A stretch of 64,000 nucleotides of DNA, taken from NCBI GenBank assembly GCA_000091205.1, contig AP006500.2; one strand, given 5' to 3'. A program made the translations under genes and the position numbers. Numbering within the stretch: the first letter of the stretch is position 1; every line of letters begins with the position of its first letter. Positions 7,052 to 39,202 of this stretch are shown here, one piece after another. This stretch comes from Cyanidioschyzon merolae (Eukaryota). The notes below the pieces were generated by a model. The model worked only from the letters and a program-made list of their open reading frames with translations. It had not been told where the DNA came from and searched no databases.

Positions 7052-7735
7052 TTACCAGTAAGGTTTCTTTTGCTCAGCATAGACTTGCTTTTGCTGATCC
7101 TTGGCACATACCTCCACTTTTTCATACTTCACACAAACGTTTTCCTCCTTAACGCATTTCTTGCCATAGGATTCGCAGTTCTGCACGAAGGAGATGCATT
7201 TGCCCTCTGCGTGCTTTGCACATACTTTCTTGTACTTGGCACATACCTTGACGGTTTCGTATGCGCTACCGTAACGCTTGCATTTGTTGTAGTCCGTCTC
7301 TTCAGCGATGCAGATCTGCACTTTCTTACAGAACTGCTTCGCTTGTTGTTGTTGTTGCTGTGGCGAAGACCAACGCTGGGCCCAATACTTGTCCTGCTGC
7401 TGTTGCTCCTCGACATGTTGGCAGTCTTCCTTGTAGCCGTACTTGGAACACTTCTTTCCATACTCAACGCAAACCTGCACAGGCTTCTTTTCATACTGAT
7501 ATTCAACACACTTTTCCTCGTGCTTCACGCAAAGCAGCTCGTATTCTGCGCAGACGTTCACGGGCTTTAGGCAGACGGCCTCGTACTTGGTGCAGTTGTA
7601 ACCGTACTGGACGCACTGCGTTTCATAATAGCACTTCTGCTTCGCTTCATTGGAGAGTGCCCATTGCGGTGCAACGATGACGAACGCAATCGCCAATAGC
7701 AAAATAGAGAAACGCAAGTGTCCTGGTTTCATCAT
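7052..7735 (-). CDS. Secreted cysteine-module Gln/Lys/Tyr-rich protein, paralog A (family I do not recognise)
   Basis: ATG-ATG at 7735/7732 followed by the signal-peptide-like MMKPGHLRFSILLLAIAFVIVAPQWALS. An N-terminal Cys module (CYYETQCVQYGYNCTKYEAVC...) is followed by YKEDCQH, a W..RW motif, and a second 10-Cys module (CKKVQIC...KC..YG....C..Y..VC...GKC.....C..YG.KC.....VC.Y...VC). The protein ends in W. Confidence 0.7.
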   Translation of the reverse strand: MMKPGHLRFSILLLAIAFVIVAPQWALSNEAKQKCYYETQCVQYGYNCTKYEAVCLKPVNVCAEYELLCVKHEEKCVEYQYEKKPVQVCVEYGKKCSKYGYKEDCQHVEEQQQQDKYWAQRWSSPQQQQQQAKQFCKKVQICIAEETDYNKCKRYGSAYETVKVCAKYKKVCAKHAEGKCISFVQNCESYGKKCVKEENVCVKYEKVEVCAKDQQKQVYAEQKKPYW

Positions 7736-8148
7736 TGCAGCGTACGCTGATGCGGTGGTTTTCAAGCGCTTTCGTCTGAAAAACACCAATTTTTCCTCGA
7801 AATAAATGGTTACATCGGCCAGAGCTCGCAAAATCCCATGAACCGGACGCGCGTTCGATACGGGTGAGGTGAATCCCTGCATCTGCCGCATCTACCGCGA
7901 CCTGATGATGCGATTCCGCTAATCGGCGCAGATGAAGGAGCGGCCATACAAAGCCGTACCGGCGTATCAGCTTGCAGAGAAAACAATGCCCTCAATTCGT
8001 CAGCGTCGCATCTGCTGCGATGACAACGCGTACAGCGCCAGGAAGCTATTGCGGAATGCTCTACCAAGACCTGGTGCCTAGAACGCCGATGTACGACGAT
8101 GCCGCAGCCCCAGCGGGCATCCTTGTCCAGGAAACACGAGCGTCTTTC

Positions 8149-8170
8149 GTGCGTGCGTGCGTGCGTGCGC
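8149..8170. repeat. (GTGC)n microsatellite
   Basis: gtgcgtgcgtgcgtgcgtgcgc. Confidence 0.9.
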
Positions 8171-8249
8171 GGCTCTTTTGTTCTGGCATCATATTTGTGT
8201 ACATTCGTGTATGAGCGAAATGGAACGAGTCCCCGTAAATCGGGCGGAC

Positions 8250-9100
8250 GCACTAAAGTTTAGGTCCCTTCCAGCTGTTATGAACACCAGTTTTTGTGGA
8301 CTTTTTCTGCGACTGCTTCCTCTGCCTTTCTTTTACCCCGGCTTTACATGCGTCGGTCTCTCGTCTCCCTCCACCTGCTTTAACAGGTATCGAAGGTTGT
8401 CGATACCGTCGTCTATCAAGGACAGTCGCTTCTTTCGTTTGTTGACAACGCGTTTCATGGACAGGTGGAAGCTGCGATGCATGCTTCGCTTGCCGGTTTC
8501 ATATCCTTTTTACACAGGCCTGGTACGCAATTCGCAGCGGTGACACTCGGCCGTGGTCAGGTGTTTTCATGAGACCGCAGCATCTACGTTTCCGAGGGTC
8601 GCCCTGTGGCGCGCGAACACTCGCTTCATCCCAAGATGAAAGCACGTTACCGGCACATATCGCTCTCGCCGATGCTCTTCTCCGTTTCCGCACCTGGTGT
8701 CGTGCTCGACGATCATGTGCCTCTTCTGAGCGATCATCTCTACGAGTGCTCTTTCCGCCGTGCATACAAGCGCGTACTTCTCGATTCTATAGAGGAATTG
8801 CGGAACGCGATGTTGTCCGCGATGGAACACTTCCCGGAAAGGGAATCCCGGCTGGAGGCGATGTCGAGAATTCTCCAATCCTTTTCTACACACTCCGTAG
8901 AAAGCGAAAACGCTCTTTCCACTGGATCTGAACGGTGCGATGCCTAAAGTCCAAGACGATTTCCCATGCAAACAGAGGAGACGGGAGCCTCTGGGAGCAT
9001 TTATCATGAGACGCGTTATGCTGCCGTCAAACGCCTTTTCCGCCATCGTCACAATGAGAGGAGGATTTGTCTTTTGAACGGGATAGATCATCTCGCGCCA
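8250..9100 (-). pseudogene. Degenerate relic of a type-2 TnpB/Fanzor-like nuclease gene (copy Y)
   Basis: 8441-8505 is nucleotide-similar to 29945-30010. The minus-strand translation FHLSMKRVVNKRKKRLSLIDDGIDNLRYLL corresponds to the FRLCMKRVDNRCKWLIRDFNAAAEVVRLL tail of copy X, but the Cys residues and the RD/NAA residues are mutated. Confidence 0.35.
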
Positions 9101-10161
9101 CAAGTTCAGTGAACTTTCGGCATGAACGTGTACATAAGCCTTTAAGAGACGACGAGGATAATGTTTATCGTCAATCTGGTGAGACGATGCGCTGCACCCG
9201 CCGTTTGTGTTGGAACAGAATGATCGGTAGCCTAAAAAATGCGCGACTGGAGCATGGAAGCCGTAAGGAAATGAGAATGATAGAGCCTCATACGTGTATA
9301 TCGGGTAATCATATCGTTTATTTTACGAATACTTGTTCGATGGCGTCGCAAATTATCACGATTCCGGTGAGCTTACGAACTCCAGCGGCGGTCGGTCGAA
9401 AGGGCGGCTCCAAAAAGATGTCCAAATATCCTCGAAAGACGTGTCAATCCGTGACCCATTAATGCCGCACTTCGAATATCGAGGCTGCGCGCCTAAAACA
9501 GTTCGAAAGAATCGAAACAGAGGAAGAGAGCGAGCACCACAGTGCTCTATTCTGGTCTGACACCATCGCCTCGCCGTCTCGTGCGAGACACTGCGTTTCG
9601 CGGCATCGCCGGACGACTCGTGAACTGCTTCATTTTGTGCGTTGAAGGCGCCATTCGCGGAGCGATCCACCTCTAAAGTTGGATGCCCAACTCGAAGGCA
9701 TATGATGAAGAGCGTAACGCAGAAGACTGAGTTACAGCCCCTTCGGACTAGTCACCCAATCACGGGCATGGCGAGTGTCCTTCCTAGACAGGGTGTAGCG
9801 GCTTGTTTTCGTTGTACCACATCCATTTTATACTCGAAAGACAGATCCGCCGAGTCTTTCCACCGTTTCCTTTCTCTCTTAACGGCTATCGGCTCTGCTG
9901 TGCTGCGAGACCCCAACTTGCTCGCAGACTTTTGGCCCTTACCAAAGCACGTTCAATGCATGTCAGCTTCTACGAGCACACGCGGCATGCCCACACCTTA
10001 CGCATCCACCATACGAATGAACGCTGACCCATCAGGAACTTCCGTGGCGAATGCCCAGAACTCTACTGCACACGCGGTGTGCAACCTGTCCTTCGATCGT
10101 CGTGTTACGCTCCACCCGTCCCGCCATCTGTTCAGTCCGATAATAATGTTCGATAGGACCT

Positions 10162-11073
10162 TCAGCCCCACCATTGCATGTTGCCACCAGTGTAGTACTG
10201 CTGCTGCTGCTGCTGCTGCTGCCCTTTCTTAACTTGGGCGTACTGCTGCTTCTGTTGTTGTCCTTTCTGAAATTTGGCATACTGCTGCTTCTGTTGTTCT
10301 TGTTGCTGCTGCTGTTGCACGATCTGCGTAGCCTGTACCTGCTCTTGCTGAGCCTGTTGGCAAACCTGGACATTTTGATACTGCTGGCAAACCTGCTGGT
10401 ACCCTGTGCACTTCTGGCCGTACTGTGCGCATCCTTGCTCGTATTGCTCGCATTTGCCTTGTTGATACTGTGTGCACTTGTTCTCGTATTGCGCACACAC
10501 CTGTTCGGTTTGGTACTGCGTGGTATACTTCAGACACTTGTTCTTGTTCTGTTGGTACTTTGCGCACACCTGCTTGCAAACCGGCGTCTGCTGCCATCGG
10601 CGCATTGCGCCGTTCCATCCTTTCTTCTCCTGAACAGCCGCGGAAACCTGCTGCTTCTGAGGTGCTGGGGCAGGCGCAGGCTTCTGTGGTGCGACTTGTT
10701 GTTTTTGTTGCTGCTGCTGCTGCTGCTGCTGCTGAGCAACCGCCGATATTTGCTGCTGCTGCTGCTGCTGCTCGCAGCTAGAAGTGTATTCAACGCACTC
10801 CTGTGCATATTGTGCGCAGACCTGCACCGGCTTTTGCACAGTCTGGTACTGCACGCACTGCTGTTCCTGCTTCACGCACTCCTGCGCATACTGCTTGCAC
10901 TGCTGAATAGGCTGCAGGCATACCTTCTGATAACCAGTGCACTGGTTGCCATACTGAACACACTGCTGCTGCGTACTGCACTGTTGGTTCCAGGCAAACA
11001 CACCGGTTGTTACGGCACAGAAGGCCCAGACCAGAAGCACGACACGAGCAAAACTTGAATATCTAGACGACAT
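10162..11073 (-). CDS. Secreted cysteine-module Gln-rich protein, paralog B
   Basis: ATG at 11073 with signal peptide MSSRYSSFARVVLLVWAFCAVTTGVFA. An N-terminal Cys module (CSTQQQCVQYGNQCTGYQKVCLQPIQQCKQYAQECV...) is followed by polyQ runs and MRRW, then the second conserved 10-Cys module (CKQVCAKYQQNKNKC...GKCEQYEQGCAQYGQKCTGYQQVCQQYQNVQVC). The tail is Q-rich and ends in WWG. Confidence 0.7.
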   Translation of the reverse strand: MSSRYSSFARVVLLVWAFCAVTTGVFAWNQQCSTQQQCVQYGNQCTGYQKVCLQPIQQCKQYAQECVKQEQQCVQYQTVQKPVQVCAQYAQECVEYTSSCEQQQQQQQISAVAQQQQQQQQQQKQQVAPQKPAPAPAPQKQQVSAAVQEKKGWNGAMRRWQQTPVCKQVCAKYQQNKNKCLKYTTQYQTEQVCAQYENKCTQYQQGKCEQYEQGCAQYGQKCTGYQQVCQQYQNVQVCQQAQQEQVQATQIVQQQQQQEQQKQQYAKFQKGQQQKQQYAQVKKGQQQQQQQQYYTGGNMQWWG

Positions 11074-12764
11074 AATATGCTACCAATCTCTAGGAACGTT
11101 CTAAGGAACAAGACCAATAAAGTTTTTACTGTGACCATGCAATCCATCAGCCGGCAAGCCCATCACCCGGCCCCATGGGACACGTGAGCATAAGCCACAA
11201 ATCTGGCTGAACAGAGCCCAGACACGTTTCGCTTCCCCGCTCGATACGATTCTACAGGCCATCCAGACGCGATGCACCGGGAACCTGTGGCGCAGAGGCA
11301 CGCACAGAATGTCCGCATTGAGATCTCGGATCCTGTGACGGTGGTGGCGGGACGTGTCCGCGGCGCTTTCGGGTCCGTGTCCGTGTCCCGATTCATATCG
11401 AAGGGAAAAACAGCGCATCGCGTCGTGTCCCGGGCGTGCGGCGGACGCGACTCGTGAGTTTAGGGACAAAAATGGACATAAATAATCCGCGACCATAGGG
11501 TAAAAAATTTCTACCCACAGCTGGCCTCCAGGCTCTTTCGACTAGACCCCGGTATCGACTCAAGTTTCTCTCTCCACCCTCCAGCTTGCGAGGCTGTATC
11601 ACGAAATTAGATAGGAGGAGCCGCTCGGGTCTCGTACTGAGCACGGCACGTTGTCTGATAGTGATAGCGGCGTTGAAGTCTAGGTTCGCGAACTCCCTGC
11701 GTGGTTTGACGCTGGTCGAACCCACGTATACAAGGATTCCTCGAAGTGGTGCCCTTTGCGCCGCTACAGTCTCTTCATAGTCATGTCGCGCAAACTTTTT
11801 CCCGTCTATCTCACCTCTTCTACACCCGAGATCTGGGGGAGAAGAGGATTTATTGTTCTTTGTCGAACCCGGCGATGAAGGCCCTCTAGAATCCCCGAAT
11901 TCCATGTCCATGCAATCCTTTGGATTTTTCCTTCAACATAAACGAACCTCTATGCACTTAGGTGAGGACCTTCCCGGAGCGAGAAGGACTTGCAGTAGAA
12001 ACACGACATGTGCCTGGGTGTCTCCATGTGCTGAACGCCTGAGCGATTCACCCAGTGGAACGATCGTTACGTTTCACGATTGAAAATACTCGCTCGACGG
12101 AATTGAACCACTGGGAGCACGGAGGAAGGAGAAGCAGCCCTGCACCCCAATTGATTGGGAAAAAATCTCGAATGCAACGGGAATGGTGAAATACTAAGTT
12201 GTCTAACAGACCGACGTGTCCAAACGTCAGGGGAAAGTCTTCAATAGTTCGACAAAGTGATTGGTGCTGTTGTATGAGCCTTCTCTACGAACGAAATTGA
12301 GGCCGACAAATGAATCCGCTGCAGCTAGAATAGATGATAATGTAGTCGTTCTCTTCGAGTTCGATCATATATGCGATGAGCTCCCTCACCGCGAATATCC
12401 ATACATGCGCTGACCGTACCGTTCGAAAGAAGTCTCATCGGATCAAAAAACAAACCGACGTTTCAGTGCTTCTTACCGATCGAGACGTTCGGGGAACTCC
12501 GGGGTTGCGATTTCGATGGAAGATAACCGTGCGTGATGTAGGACTCGCTTCTAGCGACTGTATTCAAGTGTTCTCGGGGCCACACGAATAAGTTGTTGAG
12601 AGGCAGAGACGCCGGTGGCAGCCACTATCTTCGCTTTCGCCTTGCATAAGGTGATGAACAGGTCGCATTCTGCCATGGACCGCAAGCACGCTTTGAAAAC
12701 GTCAGTTTTGGGCGCGGAACGTATATACTTGTTTCTTTCTTTCATTATCCCTCAACAATCTGAG

Positions 12765-16676: not shown

Positions 16677-19120
16677 GATTAGCGTTCTCTGGTCTCAGGT
16701 TAACATTCGGGGCGCAGGCAGACTGTCGACAATTTACAAACGCTTCGAGACACCTCACCAGCGATCGCACAGAGCTCCTCTGTGCTCGATGCGGTGGCAG
16801 GTTTGAGCGTCTCGCATGTCTAGCGCGCATGCGAAGAACTGATGGCACGTGAGCGACGGCAGCAGCAGCAGCAGCATCCCTGATGATAAATTCCGAACAA
16901 GTCCGCGCGAATATCTGCACGAGTGGCAGAGAGGCTTTTCCTAGTCCGGCGATATCCTTAGCGGCTGCGATCATACGTTTTACTCTACGAGTCCTGTCGC
17001 GGTTCCTTTTGCAAAAGTCTCGTACACTTCGAGAAGCACGAGATGCCACTGCCTCGCGTCTGTGGCAGCAAACGCTGTGCAAAACGGCCGAGCCGCATGA
17101 TATGCTGCCAACCGAATCGCTCCGAGTTGTATATTGCGAGGATACGAGATCCAATGAAGTGGCTCTCGGAGTTTCCCGAGAACGACGCCGCAGCGACCGT
17201 GGCGCTGTGCACCTTTTTCTGAGTCACTGAGAAGGAGCGTTATGGCCTGGGCCTTGCAAGAAACACTCGCCCAAGCCAGCATGCTCCGAAGCGCCTGCGA
17301 GTCTTTGCGGTACTTTGGTAGGCATTCCGATCTGCAGAGCTGATCTCACGGCTTTCTGCGACCTCGATTGAGGATACCGCTGGCGGGATGCGCCATCCGA
17401 ACGACCCTGGGCCAAAAGCGAGCGTGCAGTTTTCAGAAGAAACTTCTAGGTCTCTAGTACGAAAATCCTCCCACGGAATGGACGAGCTCTATTAAGAGAC
17501 GCTGCAGCGAGCAAGCAGCAACGCCAGTGGGAGTCGCAGTTCCTGTAGGTACGAGACATACGCCTCAACACGCTCTCGGCTTGCAAGCGAGTTCTGTAAA
17601 CGGTACAGGAATGACATTGACATGGCCTCCGCAATCTGTATTCAATCTACTGGGAAGAGGCGCTCATGCTGGATATCTTTTCGCAATATCTCGGGTATGT
17701 AGGCGAATAGCATCATCTTTGCCAGTTGCGCGATAAATAATAACGCTTGCTTATGGGGTTTATGATCAATTTGCTGGGAAGACTCGTCGATGCGTTACTC
17801 ACAAGCCGATGGACGTGCGGACAACATGTTCGAATCATCGATCGTATACCCTGCAAAAGTAATATGTACCGTCTCCCGTGCTCATGGATGTAGGAAAATT
17901 AGTTTTGATATTCCGACACCGTCGCATGAAAAGCAGAATGATCCCCAATTGCGCAGCTGCAACTTTTTGTTCGACAGAAGGTTTACCTGGACCAGCTATC
18001 CCAGAATGGAGGATGGGTACTGGAAATCTAAAATGCGTTCATCATACTGCACCCTACCTTCGAGCTCTATTACCCATGCTTCCTCTTGGATGTACTGGTC
18101 TTTTTGTACTTTCTATCGTGCATCGATTGTCTGCTGTGAGCATCCGCAATAGCACCTATGCAATTGGTACGGATGTGACACAGAGACAGAGTGGCTTTGC
18201 TATACCACTGACAGCATCAGCTCGAGGAGTGCTGCGCTCGACACGGTGTCAAAGTACATAATCATTCTGGGAGCCCGCAGGCTGCGCAGACAGACCTGCT
18301 GTCTGCGGCAGCGCGAAGCGGTATTCTGGGAGATAACTGCAACAAGGGCGACGCATAGACACATTCTACCCGCTCCGAGTGACAGAATAAACTGCGTTGC
18401 GGACGAGTTGCGCAGATCTCACTATAGTGCCCGCCACTGGGAGGAGCATGAAGCGTATGCGGGGCAGATTCGTCCCGCTCGCGGGACCTTTCGCCAAGAA
18501 GGTAAACATTTGACGATATGGAGAGCTTTCCCCTTTTAATGTTTATCGTAGAGGGGGAATGGATTTTTTATATCGTTGGTAGTTCATGGTTAGTCTCTGT
18601 TCTTTTTTCTGTATGGAGCAGTCGATACAATCACCTCTATATCTGGCAGGCACGAGACAGGATGGGCATCTCGCCGTTGAAGCGAAACGCGTTCCTGAAG
18701 AGTATCATGTTGATCTAACAAGATGTATTTGCATTGAAGACGGAGCAATCTATAGTTCAGTCTAATTATGTTCCAACTTTCAAGTGAGTACATTCAAGTG
18801 ATTCTTCGCACTATGTAACGGAGGCGTTCGAAGAGCGTCCTTTTTCAAAAAAGACACTAAAACAGGAAAGTTATGGGAAAGCGAGTCGACGAGCCCTGAG
18901 GCCCAGTGTCGCCGGCTGCCTGAAAAAACAAAAAACAGTGCCGAGTCAAGAAGAAAAGGAAAAGAAAAAGAAGCGAAATGGAGAGGCCCTACGTCGAAGG
19001 CTGCAATAAAGACGACAGTGCGACGAAATCGTAGTAAAACCCTGTCTTCGTAGACATATCAAGGGTCCGCACAAGGAAAAGTCGCAAGACGCCATCAGAA
19101 TCCATATCGCGTCTTACTCC

Positions 19121-19786
19121 ATGAGTATTATAAAGGCGCCGTTAGGACTAATGCATTTGGAGAAGGATACGTGTCGCAACGTGACGGACATCAAAACAAT
19201 TGACGTTCTGGAAGAATTTTTCAACAAGACCTTCACCCGCCACCTGATGCTTGGCACCGGGGAAACGTCGAGTGGAAATGAGCGAGCGCATGCCCTCCAC
19301 GAAAATCACGCCGAATACCGCATCAGCGGTACTCGATCCAGGGGCGACTTGTGTATTGACACCTGCGGGGCAGTCAGGTACTTCACGAACCTAAAGATCC
19401 ATTTGACCGTGAAACTCGAATGCTTCACGATACGCGTCCTGTTTGCGCTGTACTCGGGCCTCTCGCGCACAGGAATATGGGTCATTATCGATGGCATCAC
19501 GAATGATCGCCAGCACGAACAGGAGACTGAGCTCGTCGAAGAGAAGATATCACACAGGAGAACGAATGAGGCTTCTGTCATCCGTGCGGCTATGCAAGAG
19601 CATCGTGCGGACTTGGTGCTCGCGCATCCAGCAGAAAAGGTATCAGATATGAAAAAAGATGAAGAAAGATGCTGTTCCCGAGCCCTGCGCTATTTTACGC
19701 TTTTGGGCCGGGATCTGGAACGCATGGCCGAAAAGCAGCTGAGTCGCGGAAAAATGAAGATTCGGAGGAATGGAAGGCTTTCCTAA
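19121..19786 (+). CDS. Conserved ORF1 of the duplicated module (221 aa, unknown function). It could be the N-terminal WED/REC-like part of the type-1 Fanzor-like gene.
   Basis: ATG-initiated ORF that is intact in both copies (37034..37699) with ~5 aa differences. No motif recognised. It lies immediately upstream of the RuvC-bearing frames and in the same orientation. Confidence 0.4.
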   Translation: MSIIKAPLGLMHLEKDTCRNVTDIKTIDVLEEFFNKTFTRHLMLGTGETSSGNERAHALHENHAEYRISGTRSRGDLCIDTCGAVRYFTNLKIHLTVKLECFTIRVLFALYSGLSRTGIWVIIDGITNDRQHEQETELVEEKISHRRTNEASVIRAAMQEHRADLVLAHPAEKVSDMKKDEERCCSRALRYFTLLGRDLERMAEKQLSRGKMKIRRNGRLS

Positions 19787-21200
19787 TGGGTACGCGCCTC
19801 AACGTCGTTCCGATATGCAGCGCCAACTCATATTTCGTGGCAGTCTGCTCCAGCGTCCCTCATGGCATCGTGAGGGATATCTGTCCGGAGTTCGATGCAG
19901 GCAAGAAGGAGTTCATGGGCCAAAACCGGGAAACTCATTGGAAGAATATCTTCGATTTCAAACGTCTCAATACGGGCAAGAAAGGGTATTCACGGGGACC
20001 ATCGGAAGCGATGGGGCAGCCATGTGTGTACATTACCGGCGGCTGGGGGCGGATCGTCCTATCGTGCCTTCGGCTTCGCCCTCGCCGAAGCATGAAGAAA
20101 AGAAGGAGGCAGATCCTGCGACTCAGGAGGTGCAGGATAACGAGCTTGTCGCTGGCTCGGCGAAGCATGAAGAAAACAACAAGGCGGATCCTGCGACACA
20201 GGAGGTGCAGGATAACGAGCTTGTCGCTGGCTCGGCGAAGCATGAAGAAAACAACAAGGCGGATCCTGCGACACAGGAGGTGCAGGATAACGAGCTTGTC
20301 GCTGGCTCGGCGAAGCATGAAGAAAACAACAAGGCAGATCCTGCGACTCAGAAAGTGCAGGATAACGAGCTTGTCGTTGGCACCGACCCGGGGAACACAA
20401 ATATCGTTACCATCGCTGCACCCAAGCGTGCGGAAGATGGTCCTGACGTTAGCTCACGTCAGAAAGACATGCTTCTTTTAAAGTTCTAAACATAGAAATA
20501 CCATCGAGAATCGGGAATACTGAATACGAGGAAGAAAATCGAGACGTGGAATGCCGCAGTGCAAGAGCATCTGGAAGCTTTGAGCGAGCTGACGAGCCGA
20601 GGAGCGGACTTTCAGGCTTCTCGGAAATCCATGAAAGTTCGTGTTGCTCATTGGGAGGCGCTGTGGGATGAGTATCCAAAGCCCCGGTGGGCTCGTCAGC
20701 GACTGATCTTGTGCTGTGGGAAACAGGGAGCGTTCGCCAACTTTTTCAATGCGTTCGGCGCCCTCAAAGAGGACGAGAGTCAGAGGCTCGCAATAGCGTA
20801 TGGAGCAGGGCGCTGGATGACCCAAAAAGGGTGTACACAGCTCCATCGACAAGAGCGTACAAGAAGTGTGCACATCGTTTTGTCACAATACCTATCGATG
20901 AGTTCCTAACGTCCTATATGCACCATGAGCTGGGGTGCACACTTCCGAGCGTCGAGACGGAAAAGCGTCAGCGGGGCCCTGAGGATATAGCAAAGTACGG
21001 AGCGCTGACAGAGCAGCAAGTAGAAAGTAGGGCGAAAGTTCCTGGGCTACGTGCACTGGTGCGTACAACCAGTGATGGCAAGAAACGTATAGCGTTTGTC
21101 AATCGTGACTCGAACGCCGCTATCAATACCAGGAGATGTACGGTGATGGAGACGAGACCCCCGGAGTTGATACGATCCAACTTTACGCGGCAGCCTCTCA
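19770..21200 (+). pseudogene. Type-1 TnpB/Fanzor-like RNA-guided-nuclease-family gene (OrfB_IS605 / OMEGA superfamily). It is frame-disrupted and probably a pseudogene.
   Basis: RuvC-I-like NELVVGTDPGNTNIVTIA at 20367-20414 (compare the TnpB GIDLG..n.ATLS motif). The frame then breaks (stop at 20489). Further downstream are ...AIAYGAGRW / VYTAPSTRAYKKCAHRF....MHHELGC (a YTSQ.C..C-like zinc-finger region, 20830-20950) and RuvC-III NRDSNAAIN at 21101-21127 (compare dRDvNAAiNI). These motifs lie in at least three frames. Confidence 0.55.
20082..20381 (+). repeat. 75-bp in-frame tandem repeat, 4 units, encoding AKHEENNKADPATQEVQDNELVAGS
   Basis: Units start at 20082, 20157, 20232 and 20307. The last unit runs into the RuvC-I motif, so the repeat duplicates the approach to GTDPG. 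Copy B (37995..38219) has only 3 units. Confidence 0.9.
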
Positions 21201-21364
21201 AGGTGAACTTACCCAGGGACAAGTTGGAACCAGTAGTAGGTGGCCGGTCCAAAAAGACCGGGAGGCGTCTGCACGTCAGCGTACCGACATCCACACTATC
21301 GGCGTCGTGTATATGCGTCGGTATACCTGTTTGGTCTGTGGTAGCTGAGAAGCATGGCCCGTGG

Positions 21365-21964
21365 ATGCCTTTTTCGAGTCGTTTCTTTCGGCAGCTGGTT
21401 CGCGGTGTCAGCTATGTGCCGGTCGTGTACGTTGTCCACGATCTTGTCGGTACGATTGTTCCCGTGAGGGGTGCGTCTATGCAACCAACCCTGAACCCAG
21501 GTGCGGCTGCAGGGGAGCTACCTCCCGGACAAGTTAGCGGCAGTCAGGATGTCGTGTTGGTTAGCCGGCTTCTCCGCGCTGTTTGGAACGTAAGGCGTGG
21601 GGATATCGTCGTTTTGCGGTCTCCCGACGCGGGACCGCAGAAGCGACTCGTGAAAAGGGTGGCCGCTCTAGAGGGGGATCGCGTTTACAACCACCGCACT
21701 GGGAAGTTTGTGGAGGTTCCACCTGGCCACTGCTGGCTCGTAGGTGACAACCGTACGGTGTCCCGTGACTCGGCTAGCCACTACGGGCCGGTTCCGCTGG
21801 GACTCCTCGAAGGACGCGCAGTGGCGGTTATCTGGCCACCACGTCGCTGGCAGGTGCTCGCGACGTCACCAAGCACAGGTTTGTGGCTCGACACTCGGAA
21901 CAGCGAGGGAGACCAACTGCCAGCCAAGAAGCAAGTGCTGGCCAAGTCGGCAACTACGAAGTGA
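21365..21964 (+). CDS. IMP1: Mitochondrial inner membrane protease subunit, an IMP1/IMP2-type S26 signal peptidase
   Basis: ATG at 21365. Motifs: VRGASMQPTL (GxSMxPTL nucleophile Ser), RGDIVVLRSP, KRVAALEGD, GHCWLVGDNRTVSRDSASHYGPVPLGL (GDN...S.DSR.YG box D/E). The protein is about 199 aa. Confidence 0.8.
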   Translation: MPFSSRFFRQLVRGVSYVPVVYVVHDLVGTIVPVRGASMQPTLNPGAAAGELPPGQVSGSQDVVLVSRLLRAVWNVRRGDIVVLRSPDAGPQKRLVKRVAALEGDRVYNHRTGKFVEVPPGHCWLVGDNRTVSRDSASHYGPVPLGLLEGRAVAVIWPPRRWQVLATSPSTGLWLDTRNSEGDQLPAKKQVLAKSATTK

Positions 21965-22199
21965 ATGGCTGTACGTCCGGATGGTGAGCAGAGAACGGCG
22001 CTATGGAGCAGCACCCATTTCAGAATACCATACAACGGATCCGCTCAGCGAACTCGGGCGTAGACGCTCAAGTCTGGACCGCTTCGCATTGTCATCTACA
22101 AGAGGTTTTGTGGGCGTTTTCTTCGAGTACGTCCTTTTCCTCGCTCTTGTCTCCGGTATTGTATACGTCGAACGATGCATGTTGTCTTGTTGGGTTGCC

Positions 22200-23813
22200 A
22201 GTAACCGAGGCATGTCGACGGCAGCGGTAGAGTCGCGGTATCGCCTCTTCGGGCAGTTGTGGACGCGTTTCATGCCCAGGCAAAAGTTGCCATCGATGGG
22301 TCCTCTGTATGTGTATGCAACGTCGGTGCTGCGTTTGCAGCGGTGACAAACTTGGGTGTGTTCCGGCGTTCCCATGCGTCCCCAACGTACGTTCTCCCTC
22401 TCGGAAGGGCGCTTTGTGGTACCTGTACGCCAGCTCCATCACCCACCATATGGTATCGACGGGTGCAGAGGGCTTGCCCCGAGATCGTCCTCCGTTTCGG
22501 CGCCTGGTGCCGTAAACTGCGATGACGGGCTCGTTCTGGTCGATCGCCTCGGCGAGCACCAGACGCGCTGCAAACACAAGTGCAAACGCCTCCTCTCGAT
22601 GACTCAACATGCGCTGGCTTGCGCGCTCTTCGCTCCCTGAGTACGCTTTTGGCGAAACATGGCGATGATCGTGACGAGCATCGCGTTGCCGTACCTACTC
22701 GTGGGCATTGTGTGTCCACGTGCTTCACTTGTGTGCGAGCGTGCAGTCACGGCTTCTGGGACTCGCTGCTGCTTCCGTCGCTTGCTTGCTGGACGGACGT
22801 TTTTCGCGTTCATTATCTTCCGCTGATACGAAGAGTACAGGCGCGCTGGCAGAATGCACGGCTGCTGGTCCAAGTCAAGTATGCGGGCACAAAACCCGAG
22901 CAGCCATAGCTTCGCCTGTTGCCACCAGGGGTATTGGGTCTCTGTTTGGGTAAAAGAGGAGCGCAGGTGCAGGGGTCCGCACTGCATGCTCCAGGCTGGT
23001 GCAGAGTGCATTGGAGAGCATCCTCGCGAGGCGATGCATTTGTACGGGTCGTTGCTCGTCTGCGTAGTAGCTCGTCTGTGCTGTATAGGTCGTTGCTTGT
23101 CTGCGTAGTAGCTCGTCTGGGCTGTACGGGTCGTTGCTTGTCTGCGTAGTTGCTCGTCTGGGCTGCACGGGTCGTTGCTCGTCTGCGTAGTAGCTCGTCT
23201 GGGCTGTACGGGTCGTTGCTGGTCTGCGCAGTAGCTCGTCTGGGCTGTACGGGTCGTTGCTGGTCTGCGCAGTAGCTCGTCTGGGCTGTATAGGTCATTG
23301 CTCCTCTTCGTAGTAGCTCGTCTGGGCTGTACGGGTCGTTGCTCGTCTGCATAGTAGCTCGTCTGGGCAGGGGTGCTTTTCAGCTCTGACGGTGTCATGA
23401 ATCGTATGGGAGGTTCGCTGTTGTCCTTGTTGATAATGGCGATATTGGCCGATACGCTTACGCAGTCGGTCTCGACGAAAGACGCAACCTCTCCTGGTCG
23501 TATTGCGAAGCTGGTATTCCCGCAGTTTTTCCTTCCCGCTTGCATCTATTGCTTGCGAGGCATGGTGTCGCCACTGCCGAGCGGTGTTTCCTCGATGACC
23601 GTGAAGAAAAGCGGATTCGACTTGAGCACCGAATCGATTATTTGACGTGACAAATCCAGTCGACTTTCGGAACGGGCCTGCGAACAAGGCATCAAGGGGT
23701 GACGTCGAGGCTGTCTGCTCGTCAACCCAACAGAGCGCATTGCTGCGTCCACGAGTTGCCCTGAATCGGAAAGATCGAAAACTTGAAGCATGTGAGATTC
23801 GGGTATGCCACAC
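22200..23813 (-). pseudogene. Type-2 TnpB/Fanzor-like gene relic, convergent with the type-1 gene. It carries frameshifts and a 41-bp repeat insertion.
   Basis: Minus-strand frames give RuvC-I-like ARILDLDQQP (~22875), RuvC-II-like LVLAEAIDQNEPVIAVYG (~22553), zinc finger TPEHTQVCHRC...FCLGMKRVHNC (22348-22260) and RuvC-III-like YRDSTAAVDM (22237-22211). These lie in three different frames. The tail is clearly homologous to copy X (29850-30083): TCRHCEW...FRLCMKRVDNRCKWLIRDFNAAAEVV. Confidence 0.45.
23035..23375. repeat. 41-bp tandem repeat (~8 units) inside the type-2 relic
   Basis: Unit gggtcgttgctcgtctgcgtagtagctcgtctgggctgtac. A 41-bp period is not a multiple of 3, so the minus-strand ORF shows a 41-aa periodicity (QRPVQPRRATTQTSNDPYSPDELLRRRATTRAAQTSNYADK). 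Copy B has fewer units (about 40860-41100). Confidence 0.85.
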
Positions 23814-25213
23814 ATAAGGAGAGAAGAAGCGAAGCAGCTTGCAAATATGAGTTGGATATCGATTTCTGTTTTTTTACGGACCCGTGTTCGGGGGTATCGC
23901 GAATCATTCTGACTCCGATGAAGGAACGCATTCCAGCGGTAAATCGTTCAAGGTAACGCTCCGAAAACACGACCAAGAATCCTAAAACTACGCGTGAACC
24001 CGTATGCCCATAGTGCTGCACTTGGAATCTTGATGCCGCAGATCCAGAGAAAAACGTTTGGATGTATCGCAAGCTAGGAAGAGCGCAAGCAGCTCAAAAC
24101 TCCATGATAACGTAATACGGTTCTAGAGACCTGCTCTGGGGCCGCGCTCCCATCCGCAGAGGCAGCGCACGAAAGCAACAGCACTAGCCAAAAAAATGAG
24201 CTCGAACGGGTTCACATATCGGCATACATTGCATTACCGATTTCGCATGGCGTGGAACTGGGGAGAGAGCATCCCAATATGGAAACGTACTCAGCCGGGC
24301 ACGCGTCTGCATCCGCAGCATATGCGCAGGTCCCGTGAAAGGACCACCTGCGGCGCCGTGCGGCCCGCGCTGCACCAGGCCAGCTTCTCTGACAGCCTAA
24401 ACAGCGCCAATGCTCCCGTGACCTGGACTACGCTCAAGGTCTAGCTCCGCAGCAAACGACGTACCTGCTGTCGCTCGCCGCCCTGAACTAAACGCACGCA
24501 CGCGTACGCGTCCTCGAGTTGGGCGCTTCACGAAAGCGACCCGAGCAGCCGCAGGCTGCAAAACGTGCTCCCTTGTTGCCTAGCGCTTTCTCACGAGAAT
24601 AACCTCGAACCGGTACGCCTTCGAAGCAAAGAAAAGCGCCTGCGAGCTCGACCTCGTATGCAGCCTATAAACGAGGCTCCTGGGGTGCTCGTTATCGAGC
24701 TTCAGTGCACGCATCGATACAGCCCCCGCCACGTTTCCCACCGAACAAAGCACCGTGATCTCTGTTGCATCGTCATGCACCAGTCACGTATCAACCTCTG
24801 CGAAAAGCAAGCTCGATGCATACAACCAACAACAACCGTACGCATCAGCAAGCAAGCATCGAAGCAGATGGCAACAAACAGTGCCCTTGGCGCGTGCTGC
24901 TGCCTCCTTCGGGAGATTGTTTTCGGACAACGCAGCAGCGATCGCGCGCGCGCGCCTCGAAGGCCATCAGCTGCAATTCGACGCTGCCTCGAAAGTGTGC
25001 GTTCGATCCGCACTACGGCGGCGCGAGCTGTCACGACTCCGGTGACCCCCAGCGAACAGTTCGCATCGAGATAGAAGTCGAAGTTTGCAACGTGGCAGTG
25101 CCAGCTTGCGCTATAGCATGGCCCCGGAGGAGGCGCCAGTCCAATGCTTCCAAAGCAATTTGTGTTTGGACTTGTTCTAGCTCGAACAACATCTGTAATC
25201 CGATTGTATCTCA

Positions 25214-27091
25214 TTGAAAGCCATGAACATGAGGCTGCTCTATCTGGCCGCTATTGTAGTGGTCCTGGCGGCGACGCTGCTGCAAAGTGCGGCCGCCATG
25301 GACTACTATCAGAAGGATATGAAACAGAAGAAGCAGTGCTACACAGTCGAGAAGTGTGTGAAGCAGGAGCGCAAATGTATCCAATATGAGAAGGTTTGCA
25401 CGCAGCCGCAGAAGAAGTGCATCCAGCACGAACTTATCTGTGTGCAGCAAGAGAACCAGTGCAAGCAGTACGAGCCCGAATACCAGAATGTTAAAGTCTG
25501 TGTTGCGTACGAGAAAGAATGCGTGCAATGGAACTATAAGGATGAGTGCCAGCAGGAGTACGTCCAACAGAACAATTACTTCTGGGGCATGAGATGGTCC
25601 AATGAGAAGAAGAAGGAGCCTGTCAAGAAACAGTGCAAGAAAGTTCAGAACGGCTGCGCACAGTGGCAGGAGAACAAGAACAAGTGCGCACAGTATGGCG
25701 AACAACAACAGAAGATCGGACAAAAGTGCTCCGACTATGTCCAGGTGTGCACGAAGACGAAACCCGGGAAATGCATCCAGTATCAGGAGACCTGCAACAA
25801 CTATCAGCAGCAGTGTGCACAATGGGCTAACGTGTGCCAGCAGTACAAGAAGGAGATCGTCTGTCCTGAACCCAAGAAGGAGCCGCAGAAGAAAGTTAAG
25901 CAAGAGCAGTACGTGAAGAAGGACAACTACGTGTGGCGAATGTACGATCAAAAGAAAAAGTATGATCAGAAAAACGTAGAGCAGCAACAGAAGAATGAAT
26001 GGTTCCAGCAGCAGAATGAGAAGAAGCAGTACTATTGGCAGCCACAGAAGACCCAGTACTACAAGAAGAATGATTACAAGAAGAATGTTTACAACGACCA
26101 GAAACAGTACTACTGGGAGCCACAGAAGACCCAGTACTACAAGAAGAATGATTACAAGAAGAATGTTTACAACGACCAGAAACAGTACTACTGGGAGCCG
26201 CAGAAGACCCAGTACTACAAGAAGAATGACTACAAGAAGAATGTTTACAACGATCAGAAGCAGTACTACTGGGAGCCGCAGAAGACCCAGTACTACAAGA
26301 AGAATGACTACTACCAAAAGAAGGACAACTACGTGTGGCGAATGTACGATCAAAAGAAAAAGTATGATCAGAAAAACGTAGAGCAGCAACAGAAGAATGA
26401 ATGGTTCCAGCAGCAGAATGAGAAGAAGCAGTACTATTGGCAGCCACAGAAGACCCAGTACTACAAGAAGAATGATTACAAGCAGAATGTTTACAACGAC
26501 CAGAAACAGTACTACTGGGAGCCGCAGAAGACCCAGTACTACAAGAAGAATGACTACAAGAAGAATGTTTACAACGACCAGAAACAGTACTACTGGGAGC
26601 CGCAGAAGACCCAGTACTACAAGAAGAATGACTACAAGAAGAATGTTTACAACGATCAGAAGCAGTACTACTGGGAGCCGCAGAAGACCCAGTACTACAA
26701 GAAGAATGACTACTACCAAAAGAAGGACAACTACGTGTGGCGAATGTACGATCAAAAGAAAAAGTATGATCAGAAAAACGTAGAGCAGCAACAGAAGAAT
26801 GAATGGTTCCAGCAGCAGAATGAGAAGAAGCAGTACTATTGGCAGCCACAGAAGACCCAGTACTACAAGAAGAATGACTACAAGAAGAACGTTTACAACG
26901 ACCAGAAACAGTACTACTGGGAGCCGCAGAAGACCCAGTACTACAAGAAAAATGACTACAAGAAGAATGTTTACAACGACCAGAAACAGTACTACTGGGA
27001 GCCGCAGAAGACCCAGTACTACAAGAAGAATTACAATCTATACGGAAAGAAAGAAAATCCATACGTTCCGCAGTATTACTACTGGGAGTGA
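25214..27091 (+). CDS. Secreted cysteine-module Gln/Lys/Tyr-rich repeat protein, paralog C (625 aa)
   Basis: ATG at 25214 with signal peptide MKAMNMRLLYLAAIVVVLAATLLQSAAA. An N-terminal Cys module is followed by WNYKDECQQ, MRW and CKKVQNGCAQWQENKNKC...GKCIQYQETCNNYQQQCAQWANVCQQYKKEIVC. After that come 2.9 copies of a 134-aa repeat rich in K/Q/Y/N/W. Confidence 0.75.
   Translation: MKAMNMRLLYLAAIVVVLAATLLQSAAAMDYYQKDMKQKKQCYTVEKCVKQERKCIQYEKVCTQPQKKCIQHELICVQQENQCKQYEPEYQNVKVCVAYEKECVQWNYKDECQQEYVQQNNYFWGMRWSNEKKKEPVKKQCKKVQNGCAQWQENKNKCAQYGEQQQKIGQKCSDYVQVCTKTKPGKCIQYQETCNNYQQQCAQWANVCQQYKKEIVCPEPKKEPQKKVKQEQYVKKDNYVWRMYDQKKKYDQKNVEQQQKNEWFQQQNEKKQYYWQPQKTQYYKKNDYKKNVYNDQKQYYWEPQKTQYYKKNDYKKNVYNDQKQYYWEPQKTQYYKKNDYKKNVYNDQKQYYWEPQKTQYYKKNDYYQKKDNYVWRMYDQKKKYDQKNVEQQQKNEWFQQQNEKKQYYWQPQKTQYYKKNDYKQNVYNDQKQYYWEPQKTQYYKKNDYKKNVYNDQKQYYWEPQKTQYYKKNDYKKNVYNDQKQYYWEPQKTQYYKKNDYYQKKDNYVWRMYDQKKKYDQKNVEQQQKNEWFQQQNEKKQYYWQPQKTQYYKKNDYKKNVYNDQKQYYWEPQKTQYYKKNDYKKNVYNDQKQYYWEPQKTQYYKKNYNLYGKKENPYVPQYYYWE
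25916..27088 (+). repeat. 402-bp coding tandem repeat (2.9 copies), each unit containing four 78-bp subrepeats
   Basis: Units start at 25916, 26318 and 26720. The subrepeat encodes KQYYWEPQKTQYYKKNDYKKNVYNDQ (26 aa). Confidence 0.9.
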
Positions 27092-27479
27092 AAATCAGCA
27101 GGGAGCCACCGAACATCTGGGAGCGTCTGAAACGGTGGGGGCACGGGAAAGTTTACGGATTGGCGATTGCGCCGCTACGTACAGGTTAGACTCTTGCCAG
27201 TAAACCGATAGAGTACACCAGAATGCAGTTTGCGCTTATGGCGGGTACCTCGATCGTGTCAGGTGAGTTGCAAGGCATAGGCGCCGTGGTCTATATCGAC
27301 ACAGCATGCATGCTGTGTCTCTGCGAAGATCACCGGATCCGGCGGACGTTGCGGGCACCATAACTTAAACCACGACGGCAACATGTTACCGATATGAACT
27401 GTCATCGGTGCCAGCCCGTGACCCCCCAATAGCAGCCGCATTCAAAACAGTTCCTCATTGCAGCGACCGTGCCGCACGC

Positions 27480-28010
27480 ATTACAAGCACCGTCAGTGAT
27501 CGTATATGCCTGCTCACGAACCCGTCGATGACTAGATTTTTTTCTACTTTCCATATACCTAACGAAACTCCTGCTCACTAGTGTGAGGCATACCTCATCG
27601 GCCCACGCGTGCGACGCCGCGAACGCTCCCCGTGTGCTACAAACATCGCGGGGTTTTGCGCCTGCCCTGTACACACGCCGGGTACGGTCGGAATGGTGCA
27701 CAGCAGAGGGCAGCAGCGTCGCGGCCAGCGCCGGCGCGTAACGCGGGAGATCATTCGACGTGAGCTCCGCAACCCCCCGATACCTGATCCCCTGCCGCAC
27801 GCTGCAATGCACATCGGCTCGTCAGCGCGCGGCAGGGCACGCTTGCGTCAACGCGGCGTCGGACACGTGTCCTTCATCGATCGGCGGCGGTCTGCGACGT
27901 GTACGCACCGCGGTCGATACGCGCGCAAACAGATTTTGCAGGCATGGGACACGACGCCGACGCCGTCGTCGAAGGGAAACGCGTTCCTGACCATTCGTCG
28001 ACTTTGCCGG
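27480..28010. repeat. Dispersed ~500-bp element (family 3) immediately upstream of paralog D
   Basis: Shares cctaacgaaactcct..., cggcgtcggacacgtgtcc... and gcaggcatgggacacgacgcc...gaagggaaacgcgttcctga with 36165..36640. A ~70-bp fragment of the same element lies at 18640..18710, just left of module copy A. Confidence 0.5.
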
Positions 28011-28203
28011 GAAACATGCGATGCCGCATTCGGAGCATGCACTGCTGCCGGTGACGTGTCCCATGCACGCCGACGGCATGGCACGGCGACATCAAGGATG
28101 CAGCCTCTCCGAGCGTGCGACATTGGTGTTGAAGGCGTAGCATTCGAGTAGCGAGCGGTATTCATTCACGCGTAGAGCAATACAACTGCAACCTTAGGAA
28201 AAA

Positions 28204-29133
28204 ATGATCAAGAAAACTGTTTTGTGTTTTGCAGTAGCGCTGGTGCTTTGCATCGTAGCACCGATGAAGGGTGCGCAGGCCTGGTACAACACCGTAGCAC
28301 AGCAGGAGCAGTGCTATCAGAAGCAGGTGTGCACTCAGTATGACAACCAGTGCACAGGATATAGCAACGTATGTTTGCAGTGGGGCGAGCAGTGCAAGCA
28401 ATACGAGCAGGTGTGCACAAGCTGGGAAACCAAGTGCCTTGCCTATGAGGATGTTTACAAGACCACTCAGGTCTGCGCCCAGTACGCCCAGACGTGCGCA
28501 CAGTGGAACTACAAGGAGGACTGCCAACAGGTCAAGCAGGAGCAGAAGCAATACTATACTGCCGTGGAGACGCCAGTTGCAAAACAGGACTACAAGAAGA
28601 AGCAAGACTATGTCAAGAAGCAGGAGGATCAGCAGAAGAAGGACCAGTACATCTGGGGCCAAAACGGCTGGCGCTGGTACAACCAGGAGCAGCAGCAGAA
28701 GCAGCAGGTTCAGGTGAAGAAGGTCATCGAGACTCCGATCGCCACCCAGACCTGCAAGAAGGTGCAAGCTGGATGTGCTCGCTGGCAGCAGGACACCTCC
28801 AAGTGCGAGCAGTGGACTACAAACAAACAGAAGATCGGCGTTCGGTGCGCAAACAGCGCTCAGGTATGCTCCAACTACACACAGGGCAAGTGCGCTCAGA
28901 GCGAGCAGGTCTGCCTGAGTTATGGCCAGAAATGCACGGGCTACCAGCAAGTGTGCAAGTCGTACGGCTGGCAATGGGTCTGCCAGCAGGTTCAGGCCAC
29001 TGAACAGTACCAGCAGAAGCAGGTTTACGGCCAGAAGGAAGTATACGGCCAGCAACAGAAGCAAAAGTACCAGAAGGACCAAAAGCAGTACCAGGATCAG
29101 CAGAACTACTGGCAGAAGCAGTACATGTGGTGA
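28204..29133 (+). CDS. Secreted cysteine-module Gln/Lys/Tyr-rich protein, paralog D
   Basis: ATG at 28204 with signal peptide MIKKTVLCFAVALVLCIVAPMKGAQA. Modules: CYQKQVCTQYDNQCTGYSNVCLQWGEQCKQYEQVCTSWETKC, WNYKEDCQQ, WRW and CKKVQAGCARWQQDTSKC...GKCAQSEQVCLSYGQKCTGYQQVCKSYGWQWVC. The tail is Q/Y/K-rich and ends QYMW. Confidence 0.75.
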   Translation: MIKKTVLCFAVALVLCIVAPMKGAQAWYNTVAQQEQCYQKQVCTQYDNQCTGYSNVCLQWGEQCKQYEQVCTSWETKCLAYEDVYKTTQVCAQYAQTCAQWNYKEDCQQVKQEQKQYYTAVETPVAKQDYKKKQDYVKKQEDQQKKDQYIWGQNGWRWYNQEQQQKQQVQVKKVIETPIATQTCKKVQAGCARWQQDTSKCEQWTTNKQKIGVRCANSAQVCSNYTQGKCAQSEQVCLSYGQKCTGYQQVCKSYGWQWVCQQVQATEQYQQKQVYGQKEVYGQQQKQKYQKDQKQYQDQQNYWQKQYMW

Positions 29134-39038: not shown

Positions 39039-39202
39039 AGGTGGACTTACCCAGGGACAAGTTGGAACCAGTAGTAGGTGGCCGGTCCAAAAAGACCGGG
39101 AGGCGTCTGCACGTCAGCGTACCGACATCCACACTATCGGCGTCGTGTATATGCGTCGGTATACCTGTTTTGTCTGTGGTAGCTGAGAAGCATGGCCCGT
39201 GG

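Follow-up and report, generated by a model that had tools for sequence, protein, structure and literature searches.

The locus described here raises the question of what a cluster of four genes, encoding Cys-modular proteins rich in Gln, Lys and Tyr, does for its host. These genes, named A to D below, are carried by a 64-kb stretch of DNA (hereafter the window), whose gene identifiers place it on chromosome 18 of Cyanidioschyzon merolae 10D, a unicellular red alga. They form an old conserved cluster under purifying selection, and very probably belong to a genuine secreted family that is specific to the Cyanidiales. All four open reading frames (ORFs) reported in a preliminary description, made from the letters of the window alone, are present, and the paralogues align end to end with 40-42% identity. 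A tblastn search of the family against the 64-kb window returned exactly four copies, with no further copy or relic. The genes and their parts are as follows.

7052..7735, minus strand: gene A, 227 amino acids (aa); predicted signal peptide at 7652-7735; N-module (Cys35-Cys105) at 7421-7633; loop with YWAQRW; C-module (Cys136-Cys210) at 7106-7330; short tail ending in KPYW.
10162..11073, minus strand: gene B, 303 aa; predicted signal peptide at 10993-11073; N-module at 10774-10980; 65-residue poly-Q/PAPAP loop with MRRW; C-module at 10360-10578; Q-rich tail ending in MQWWG.
25223..27091, plus strand: gene C, 622 aa from the ATG at 25223; predicted signal peptide at 25223-25297; N-module at 25337-25549; loop with FWGMRW; C-module at 25634-25864; K/Q/Y/N-rich tail of 408 residues ending in YYYWE.
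25916..27031, plus strand: coding tandem array in the tail of gene C, found by Tandem Repeats Finder (TRF) and self-BLAST.
28204..29133, plus strand: gene D (CMR328C), 309 aa; predicted signal peptide at 28204-28281; N-module (Cys37-Cys107) at 28312-28524; 76-residue loop with IWGQNGWRW at 28525-28752; C-module (Cys184-Cys260) at 28753-28983; tail at 28984-29130 ending in KQYMW.

The start of gene A is fixed by its Cyanidiococcus orthologue (P0059/P0033, 63% and 61% identity). That of gene C had been set at the TTG at 25214, which is an artefact of the bacterial code used by the ORF lister. Since the host is a eukaryote and the Cyanidiococcus orthologue begins with MTNRLLYLAAIV, the true start is the ATG at 25223 (MNMRLLY...).

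Each mature protein of the window contains exactly 20 Cys, arranged in two modules of 10, and the module Cys are invariant among the four. Among 12 family members from three genera, all but one keep the full set of 20 Cys. The 10 conserved Cys already noticed in the second module are thus invariant across the four ORFs, and the N-module, which had been credited with about 8 Cys, actually has 10 invariant ones, the Cys of WNYKEDC and the Cys preceding it being part of the module. The Cys spacings are 6,7,7,7,7,7,13,7,9 in the N-module and 6/7,10,13/14,7,8,7,7,7,9 in the C-module. One and the same heptad underlies the two modules (hhalign probability 96%); its consensus, drawn from 127 heptads of the 12 members, is C-[VAI]-Q-Y-[EQG]-Q-[VK]. 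Other motifs are less constant than first thought. The WNYKEDCQQ motif is found in C and D, is degenerate in A (YGYKEDCQH) and is absent from B (EYTSSCEQ). The W..RW motif of the linker holds for 10 of the 12 members in the broader form [YFW]W-x(1-5)-R-[WF] or [KR]RW; Cd_3 has no such motif and the Cz_D loop, IWGQNGWRW, falls outside the pattern used. In the same way, the C-terminal aromatic residue becomes a Trp within the last three residues of 10 members, two having none. The mature proteins consist of 12-37% Gln, 8-20% Lys, 7-16% Tyr and 3-10% Cys.

The signal peptide announced for the four proteins is supported in all 12 members by a rule-based check, requiring a basic n-region, a 12-residue hydrophobic core and a small-x-small c-region. 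The mean Kyte-Doolittle hydropathy of the core reaches 2.6-3.5 over 12 residues; the c-regions read ALS, VFA, AAA and AQA in A to D, and most orthologues have A-x-A with a W after it. No later hydrophobic or transmembrane segment was detected (maximum hydropathy over 19 residues at most 0.97 past residue 35), and the family shows no KDEL-like or glycosylphosphatidylinositol (GPI)-like end, no conserved processing site and no conserved N-glycosylation sequon, sequons being almost absent. The charge at pH 1-2 amounts to about +9 to +23 per 100 residues. Judging from their sequences, these proteins look cationic, non-glycosylated and secreted.

The search for homologues relied on an exhaustive hidden Markov model (HMM) search over 1.84 billion cluster representatives, because word-index searches gave the gene D cluster only. 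Five strong matches (E < 1e-30) were obtained, all from Cyanidiales and all annotated as "hypothetical": gene D itself, the A orthologue of Cyanidiococcus yangmingshanensis (CCYA15G3913 / F1559_000941), two proteins of Cyanidium caldarium (CDCA14G3890 and CDCA14G3897) and a chimeric B fragment. No strong match came from Galdieria, other red algae or other eukaryotes. The profile search proposed in the preliminary description for the 10-Cys module thus confines the family to Cyanidioschyzon, Cyanidiococcus and Cyanidium. The chimeric fragment (P0036) lies on a contig of 2654 nt from the Joint Genome Institute (JGI); it joins the N-terminal 111 residues of gene B, exactly matched, to a CSL zinc finger of DPH3/KTI11 type (...YYFSCPCGDQF...CNSCSL...), so that either the assembly is chimeric or some wild strain has a rearranged locus. 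Searches for related loci with A and its orthologues returned conspecific contigs only, with 98-100% protein identity and about 99.2-99.4% DNA identity; the gene D protein is also found on contigs that are ~99% identical in several JGI and European Nucleotide Archive (ENA) metagenomes.

The cluster itself is conserved. Four members lie within 11 kb on the Cyanidium contig L010 (tblastn of the fetched locus), in the order family member, Iron_transport, family member, S26 peptidase, ABC, C-like gene, D-like gene, Rft1, Nas2, glyoxalase, PSME4 and Myb, and the orthologues of A, B and C are found together on the Cyanidiococcus contig L011. The gene order of the window matches both clusters (S26 peptidase, Rft1, PSME4, Myb). 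Furthermore, CMR315C-CMR330C are collinear with the other two genomes in the orthogroup table of Hirooka et al. (2026, PMC13353863). Since this synteny is common to the three genera, both the cluster and its division into types A to D are older than their divergence. The orthologue of B (L011 8111-8971) shares 71% aa identity with it; those of C are found at L011 77-1204 (74% identity) and L010 8216-9610, while that of D in Cyanidium is CDCA14G3890, which adjoins Rft1 as in the window.

Selection was examined between genera, the within-species differences being too few for a comparison of the proportions of non-synonymous (pN) and synonymous (pS) differences. Between Cyanidioschyzon and Cyanidiococcus orthologues, pN is 0.09-0.21 and pS is 0.76-1.04 (saturated); for the modules of gene B, these values are 0.09-0.11 and > 0.76. 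As pN is far below pS, the family consists of constrained coding genes under purifying selection, and this conservation rules out pseudogenes or chance ORFs. Within the species, gene A shows only one synonymous change on three other contigs. One environmental strain (L007 10001-10681, gene A orthologue) carries four non-synonymous differences, of which W118R and R121G alter the otherwise conserved YWAQRW loop motif.

The modules do not correspond to a named domain, as had been suspected: no match above threshold was found in Pfam, NCBIfam or the PDB. The NCBIfam search returned nothing and the PDB sequence profile search gave no meaningful match to a solved chain. In Pfam, the best match to PF01508 (Paramecium_SA) scored 19.9 bits for a cut-off of 21.2 (P0033, the Cyanidiococcus A orthologue); gene A of the window scored 12.3 bits and B-D gave no match. 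Somatomedin_B, PLA2_inh, Toxin_30 and MSG reached 12.5-18 bits on single heptad stretches (PLA2_inh, 18.0 bits for a cut-off of 22), the gathering thresholds being 22-24.5. Membership of these Cys-repeat families was rejected, all matches lying below the gathering threshold. Like the algal proteins, these five domains have periodic Cys in secreted or surface proteins, but the matches cover just 25-45 residues and lack the 10+10 architecture.

How such regularly spaced Cys could be arranged in space was addressed with AlphaFold2 (AF2), run on shallow alignments of 7 sequences for D and 8 for A. For gene D, the best mean predicted local distance difference test score (pLDDT) is 71.9 and one of the five models is confident; residues 37-118 and 173-260 are each predicted as an unbroken strand with pLDDT > 90, and residues 113-178 as disordered (pLDDT < 50). 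For gene A, the best mean pLDDT is 76.3 and three of the five models are confident (76.3, 76.2 and 75.0); the unbroken strands cover residues 35-108 and 133-210 (pLDDT > 90) and the disordered part residues 113-131 (pLDDT < 50). In both proteins, the predicted strands (74-88 residues) span each module from its first to its last Cys. The preliminary description had suggested a disulfide-stabilised stack of beta-hairpins. The beta and disulfide character is supported, but the AF2 models are best read as one giant hairpin between the modules and not as a stack. A stack of small hairpins is unlikely because the strand runs without a turn for ~75 residues, and because it is unbroken, the other module is the only possible strand partner in a monomer. 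Antiparallel pairing of the N-module with the C-module, with the Q-rich linker as the loop, is rather likely on the basis of these models.

According to this reading, removal of the signal peptide and oxidation in the endoplasmic reticulum (ER) would allow the N-array of 10 Cys to pair with the C-array of 10 Cys in antiparallel orientation. The product would be a single two-stranded beta-ribbon with ~75 residues per strand and up to ten inter-strand disulfides, i.e., a cystine ladder. The Q-rich linker with its W..RW motif would form the hairpin loop, and the disordered Lys/Gln/Tyr-rich tail, variable in length, would leave the open end of the ribbon and finish in Trp. With ~75 residues per strand, the modelled rod would be ~20-25 nm long.

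The Cys spacings are consistent with such a pairing. When the C-module is read in reverse, the facing spacings are 6|9, 7|7, 7|7, 7|7, 7|8, 7|7, 13|14, 7|10 and 9|7, with a total mismatch of 10 in mirrored order vs. 18 in direct order. In gene B and its Cyanidiococcus orthologue, both loop-proximal spacings are shortened together (9 -> 7 and 6/7 -> 4), which supports pairing between the modules independently of AF2. The Cyanidium member Cd_2 (L010 4114-4803) gives a second example. Its N-module is otherwise nearly identical to that of Cd_1, but two separate deletions of 27 and 30 residues leave 7+7 Cys with the mirrored pattern kept. The parts lost are N spacings 6-8 (7,13,7) and C spacings 2-4 (10,13,7), segments which face each other exactly in the hairpin model; these deletions thus support the pairing.

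Several points weigh against the ribbon. Mirror symmetry alone is not significant, as 11% of random orders fit as well. The predicted template modelling score (pTM) of the AF2 models is only 0.31-0.35, in addition to the 7-8 aligned sequences and the one (D) or three (A) confident models out of five. The odd, 7-residue Cys spacing puts the rungs on alternate faces, an unusual arrangement for disulfides of flat antiparallel sheets, so that the ribbon would have to be strongly twisted; the cystines, Val and Tyr could then run along one side. Finally, alpha-helical coiled coils have the same a/d pattern as the C..Y... heptad, and cytoplasmic proteins of helical type are weakly matched by the family HMM.

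The last point leads to another fold, in which heptads with Cys at a and Tyr at d would form disulfide-linked alpha-helical coiled coils, either an antiparallel helical hairpin or inter-chain dimers. The spacing C-x2-Y-x3 is classical for a and d positions, the proteins matched by the HMM include cytoplasmic and phage proteins with KCAEYEAKC heptads of helical composition (P0045, P0050, P0054), and the confidence of AF2 is not unanimous across models. However, two independent AF2 runs predict strand with pLDDT > 90, and the heptads have little of a helical composition: among 127 of them, Gly occupies position +4 in 20 and Pro position +3 in 12, Leu amounts to 1%, V/I/T dominate positions +1 and +6, and the content in Q/Y/V/T is high. 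The mirrored deletions are not decisive between beta and helix because any antiparallel hairpin fits them. All in all, the helical fold is improbable, and the beta-ribbon is retained in what follows as the predicted structure.

What such rods could be used for is suggested by the biology of the host. The species C. merolae has a walled diploid, and strain 10D is a haploid clone of it that lacks a wall; in nature, walled diploids are the only form seen (Hirooka et al. 2026, PMC13353863). The cyanidiophycean wall is 50-55% protein and cellulose synthases are absent (PMC13353863, citing Bailey & Staehelin 1968); it was suggested to be proton-impermeable (PMC13353863). Between the two phases, 35-50% of secretory-protein genes differ, and a secreted lysyl oxidase (LOX), FAS1 proteins and the RBOH NADPH oxidase are diploid-predominant (PMC13353863). 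LOX is found in Cyanidioschyzon, Cyanidiococcus and Cyanidium and is absent from Galdieria (PMC13353863), a distribution that appears to be that of the family. A secreted LOX-like protein was purified earlier and proposed to cross-link unidentified wall proteins (Tomo et al. 2018, PMC6508830).

As the proteins are secreted-looking, rod-shaped by prediction, rich in Lys, Tyr and Gln and positively charged, they are proposed as a wall scaffold and as plausible substrates for cross-linking by LOX and/or reactive oxygen species (ROS). The rods would be building blocks of the largely proteinaceous wall of the diploid phase. They could be made insoluble if the secreted, diploid-specific LOX oxidises their many Lys residues and/or if ROS drive a coupling of Tyr, and at pH 1-2 the resulting dense wall of fixed positive charge could oppose proton entry. 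Given the organism, a role in a cross-linked extracellular matrix or wall, as already put forward in the preliminary description, is the most plausible one. The transglutaminase, DOPA and dityrosine chemistries mentioned there are ideas; the cross-linking enzyme documented in this lineage is LOX acting on Lys, with RBOH-derived ROS, rather than transglutaminase. Among the available entries of Data Set S8, which gives expression per gene in diploid and haploid (2n/n), as Data Set S7 includes the diploid and haploid proteome, CMA024C, a secreted "unknown cupin family protein", shows ~1,300 transcripts per million (TPM) in the diploid vs. < 1.2 in the haploid, and the newly annotated CMX014C ~200 vs. 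~0 (PMC13353863), both being very strongly diploid-specific. A germin-like cupin could be a source of H2O2 for wall cross-linking.

We infer secretion, wall location, diploid expression and cross-linking chemistry from this context, and the chances that the family provides structural proteins of the diploid wall appear evenly balanced. Two points count against it. The status of LOX substrate, the Tyr cross-links and the proton barrier are purely conjectural, and, as about half of the secretory-protein genes are not phase-biased (PMC13353863), the prior expectation of a diploid bias is only moderate. The complete picture, in which a cellulose-free, acid-proof wall would have these rods as its main scaffold and as its LOX substrate, with a new ten-rung ladder architecture, short versions in bacteria and a part in proton exclusion, is a tentative one and on the whole doubtful.

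The annotation history of the four genes bears on the phase in which they act. Gene D exactly matches BAM82536.1 / XP_005538572.1 / UniRef M1UWF1, "hypothetical protein CYME_CMR328C". Genes A, B and C have no NCBI or UniRef protein by exact look-up (with three starts for A and two for C), and gene A is present in the protein collection solely as an over-extended ORF call of 279 aa from metagenomes. These three genes appear to be missing from the reference annotation of 2007, which relied on expressed sequence tags (ESTs), presumably from the wall-less 10D, and on sequence similarity. Their apparent absence from a haploid-derived annotation fits a low haploid expression. The re-annotation by Hirooka et al. 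(2026, PMC13353863) added 219 genes with diploid RNA-seq. The identifiers CMR321C-CMR328C were not found named in the full-text literature searched, and the H3K27me3 target lists of PMC5405695 gave no match for the family genes.

The same fold could also serve in a phase-independent or haploid surface coat or protective layer and not in the bulk of the diploid wall, for instance as a glycocalyx-like acid shield, a mating or agglutination surface, or an envelope of mother cells or endospores. Strain 10D keeps the four genes intact though it is propagated as a wall-less haploid, gene D was present in the EST-based gene set of 2007, and besides the many secretory proteins without bias, Hog and some TFF-like families are haploid-biased (PMC13353863). 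However, lineages of which nature has yielded only walled diploids retain the genes equally, look-ups in the haploid-derived annotation did not recover A, B and C, and no haploid coat is described in the literature examined. A rod with a cross-linkable tail and a very high content of Lys and Tyr would moreover suit an insoluble matrix. A surface coat of this kind is thus unlikely.

Another function could be adhesion: as part of an adhesive or of a biofilm matrix, the K/Y-rich repeat tails would glue cells to rock or mats. The tail of gene C, with 20% Lys and 16% Tyr, is made of ~12.6 copies of a 78-bp (26-aa) unit, ...QKQYYWEPQKTQYYKKNDYKKNVYND..., nested in a 402-bp (134-aa) super-repeat present in 2.8 copies with 99% identity. 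Environmental strains that are ~99% identical have super-repeat copy numbers that differ in steps of 402 bp: compared with the window, gene C is two units (804 bp) shorter in L001 and one unit shorter in L004. As the differences are whole units, the variation stays in frame. This composition and this plasticity of repeats resemble those of mussel foot proteins. On the other hand, the tails of A, Cd_1 and Cd_5 have just 15-17 residues and the full rod is kept, so that the conserved core function lies in the rod and not in the tail. Furthermore, adhesion is compatible with a wall role and does not exclude it. As the main function of the family, it is quite improbable.

Secreted antimicrobial or toxin-like peptides, i.e., giant analogues of defensins or tachyplesins directed against mat competitors, would also be cationic, disulfide-rich beta-hairpins like those modelled here, and Toxin_30 and PLA2_inh are among the weak Pfam matches. 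These matches are, however, all below curated cut-offs, the proteins reach 200-620 aa with long low-complexity tails, there are no conserved processing sites, and the one-to-one orthologues under purifying selection show no arms-race diversification; this function is very improbable. Hardly any credit can be given to the analogy, drawn in the preliminary description from transposon relics and duplications, with the effector or surface-protein compartments of filamentous pathogens. A 5.4-kb duplication, tandem repeats and degenerate element relics are indeed found next to the genes and among them. However, the host is a free-living red alga, none of the four genes falls within the duplicated segments, and the idea of a fast-evolving compartment is refuted by a cluster that is syntenic in three genera, with A-D one-to-one and pN far below pS.

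The surroundings of the genes nevertheless contain the repeats in question. The window has a GC content of 50-63% and the four family genes have no introns, which fits a thermo-acidophilic unicellular red alga. The ORFs around gene D include an Rft1 homologue and the Myb protein CMR337C. Self-BLAST reveals a direct segmental duplication of ~5.4 kb (18792-24184 = 36707-41915, 97-98% identity). Each copy carries a Peptidase_S26 gene (signal or inner-membrane peptidase; 20687-21964 and 38384-39802), probably CMR326C and CMR333C, which share an orthogroup, as well as a 75-bp array of four units and a 41-bp tandem array of eight units (TRF). The region that separates the two copies contains genes C and D as well as Rft1. 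The region was called repeat-rich, and the duplication and dispersed relics are indeed nearby, but no family gene lies inside the duplicated segment or a repeat, the only intragenic repeat being the coding tandem array of gene C.

Two degenerate ORF fragments, 20927-21283 on the plus strand and 11393-11911 on the minus strand, share 34% identity over 132 aa (E = 5e-11) and the common stretch N-x-D-x-NAAI-x(8-10)-RP-x-L-x-SNF-x-QP, which we take to resemble the RuvC-III end of TnpB/Fanzor (IS605/IS607 OrfB); a Pfam search of both fragments gave no match. The second is located directly upstream of gene B, and the first forms an in-frame fusion with the ORF that lies upstream of the S26 peptidase gene. 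The transposon relics of the preliminary description are probably these two fragments. A near-perfect tandem duplication is also found at 54136-54560 (~148-bp offset, 99% identity).

In the three genera taken together, 6 of 11 family genes have a sequence with a G-box-like core, GCGGACACG(TG), at a distance of 130-350 bp upstream. Its sites near the family genes of the window are the following.

11353 and 11376: GCGGACACG(TG) upstream of gene B.
27860: GCGGACACG(TG) upstream of gene D.

As a shared promoter motif it was rejected, being not significant after multiple testing and having 10 sites across the window.

The interest of this family lies first in its host. The habitats of the Cyanidiophyceae have a pH of 0.5-3 and a temperature of 40-56 degrees C, and the wall of these algae is cellulose-free and half protein. 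The structural proteins of this wall are unnamed in the literature searched, and LOX has been highlighted as diploid-specific without a named substrate. The four-gene cluster, three members of which seem to have escaped the long-standing annotation, provides concrete candidates for knock-out, since homologous recombination works in these haploids. The family is real, conserved and uncharacterised, and its predicted disulfide-ladder architecture is probably novel. A disulfide-stapled heptad hairpin with 75 residues per strand, if true, would be a new structural motif, of interest to protein design and for acid- and heat-stable biomaterials.

Similar sequence patterns are found in uncharacterised secreted proteins outside the algae. 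Weaker HMM matches (E 4e-7 to 8e-4, library of 1.84e9) include small secreted proteins (P0041, P0046 cluster, P0047, P0055) with Cys spacings 4,7,7,7,7,[9-10],7,7,7,7,7 and a turn rich in D, N, G, T and R; they have no Pfam or NCBIfam match. For at least one of these look-alikes (P0066, L009 7790-8236), the contig is bacterial; it is 20 kb long and also has sigma-70, radical-SAM and threonine-synthase genes. The other weak matches, simple tandem repeats or helical cytoplasmic proteins, were set aside. As in the algal family, these small proteins combine a signal peptide with mirrored C-x-Q-Y/W-x-x-x heptads. However, they have only 5+5 or 6+6 Cys, a tight turn of 9-10 residues and no K/Q/Y tail. 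In sequence they look like a miniature of the algal hairpin, by homology (possibly through horizontal gene transfer, as proposed for LOX) or by convergence of a simple repeat, and their mirrored arrays count in favour of the predicted fold.

Among known structures, theta-defensins and tachyplesin/protegrin are antimicrobial cystine-ladder peptides of 17-18 residues, with 2-3 rungs placed 2 residues apart on one face. They share with the structure predicted for the algal family antiparallel strands, serial cross-strand disulfides and a cationic character. The algal proteins differ from them by strands of ~75 residues, up to 10 heptad-spaced rungs, a loop of 21-76 residues and a tail; there is no sequence relationship, and the likeness rests on predicted structure.

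Other likenesses concern the proposed function. Elastin and collagen, which are substrates of LOX, are secreted, Lys-bearing fibrous or rod-like matrix proteins, as proposed for the algal family, but there is no similarity of sequence or fold and no Gly-X-Y or KA/KP motif. Mussel foot proteins have short K/Y-rich tandem repeats of variable copy number, as do the tail of gene C and its orthologues; the algal proteins have no EGF-like or decapeptide motifs, and their tails are dispensable in several members. The proposed role also recalls that of extensins and of the hydroxyproline-rich glycoproteins (HRGPs) and pherophorins of Chlamydomonas and Volvox, secreted wall blocks that also combine a rod with cross-linkable Tyr. 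The wall glycoproteins of Chlamydomonas are made insoluble by peroxidase or transglutaminase chemistry. Membership of the HRGP type was rejected for the algal family, with 0 SPP motifs and 1.0-5.2% Pro in the 11 of 12 members checked, no Ser-Pro(n) and almost no sequons. Thus, whereas the rod of HRGPs is a polyproline-II helix, that of the algal family is predicted to be a disulfide-stapled beta-ribbon.

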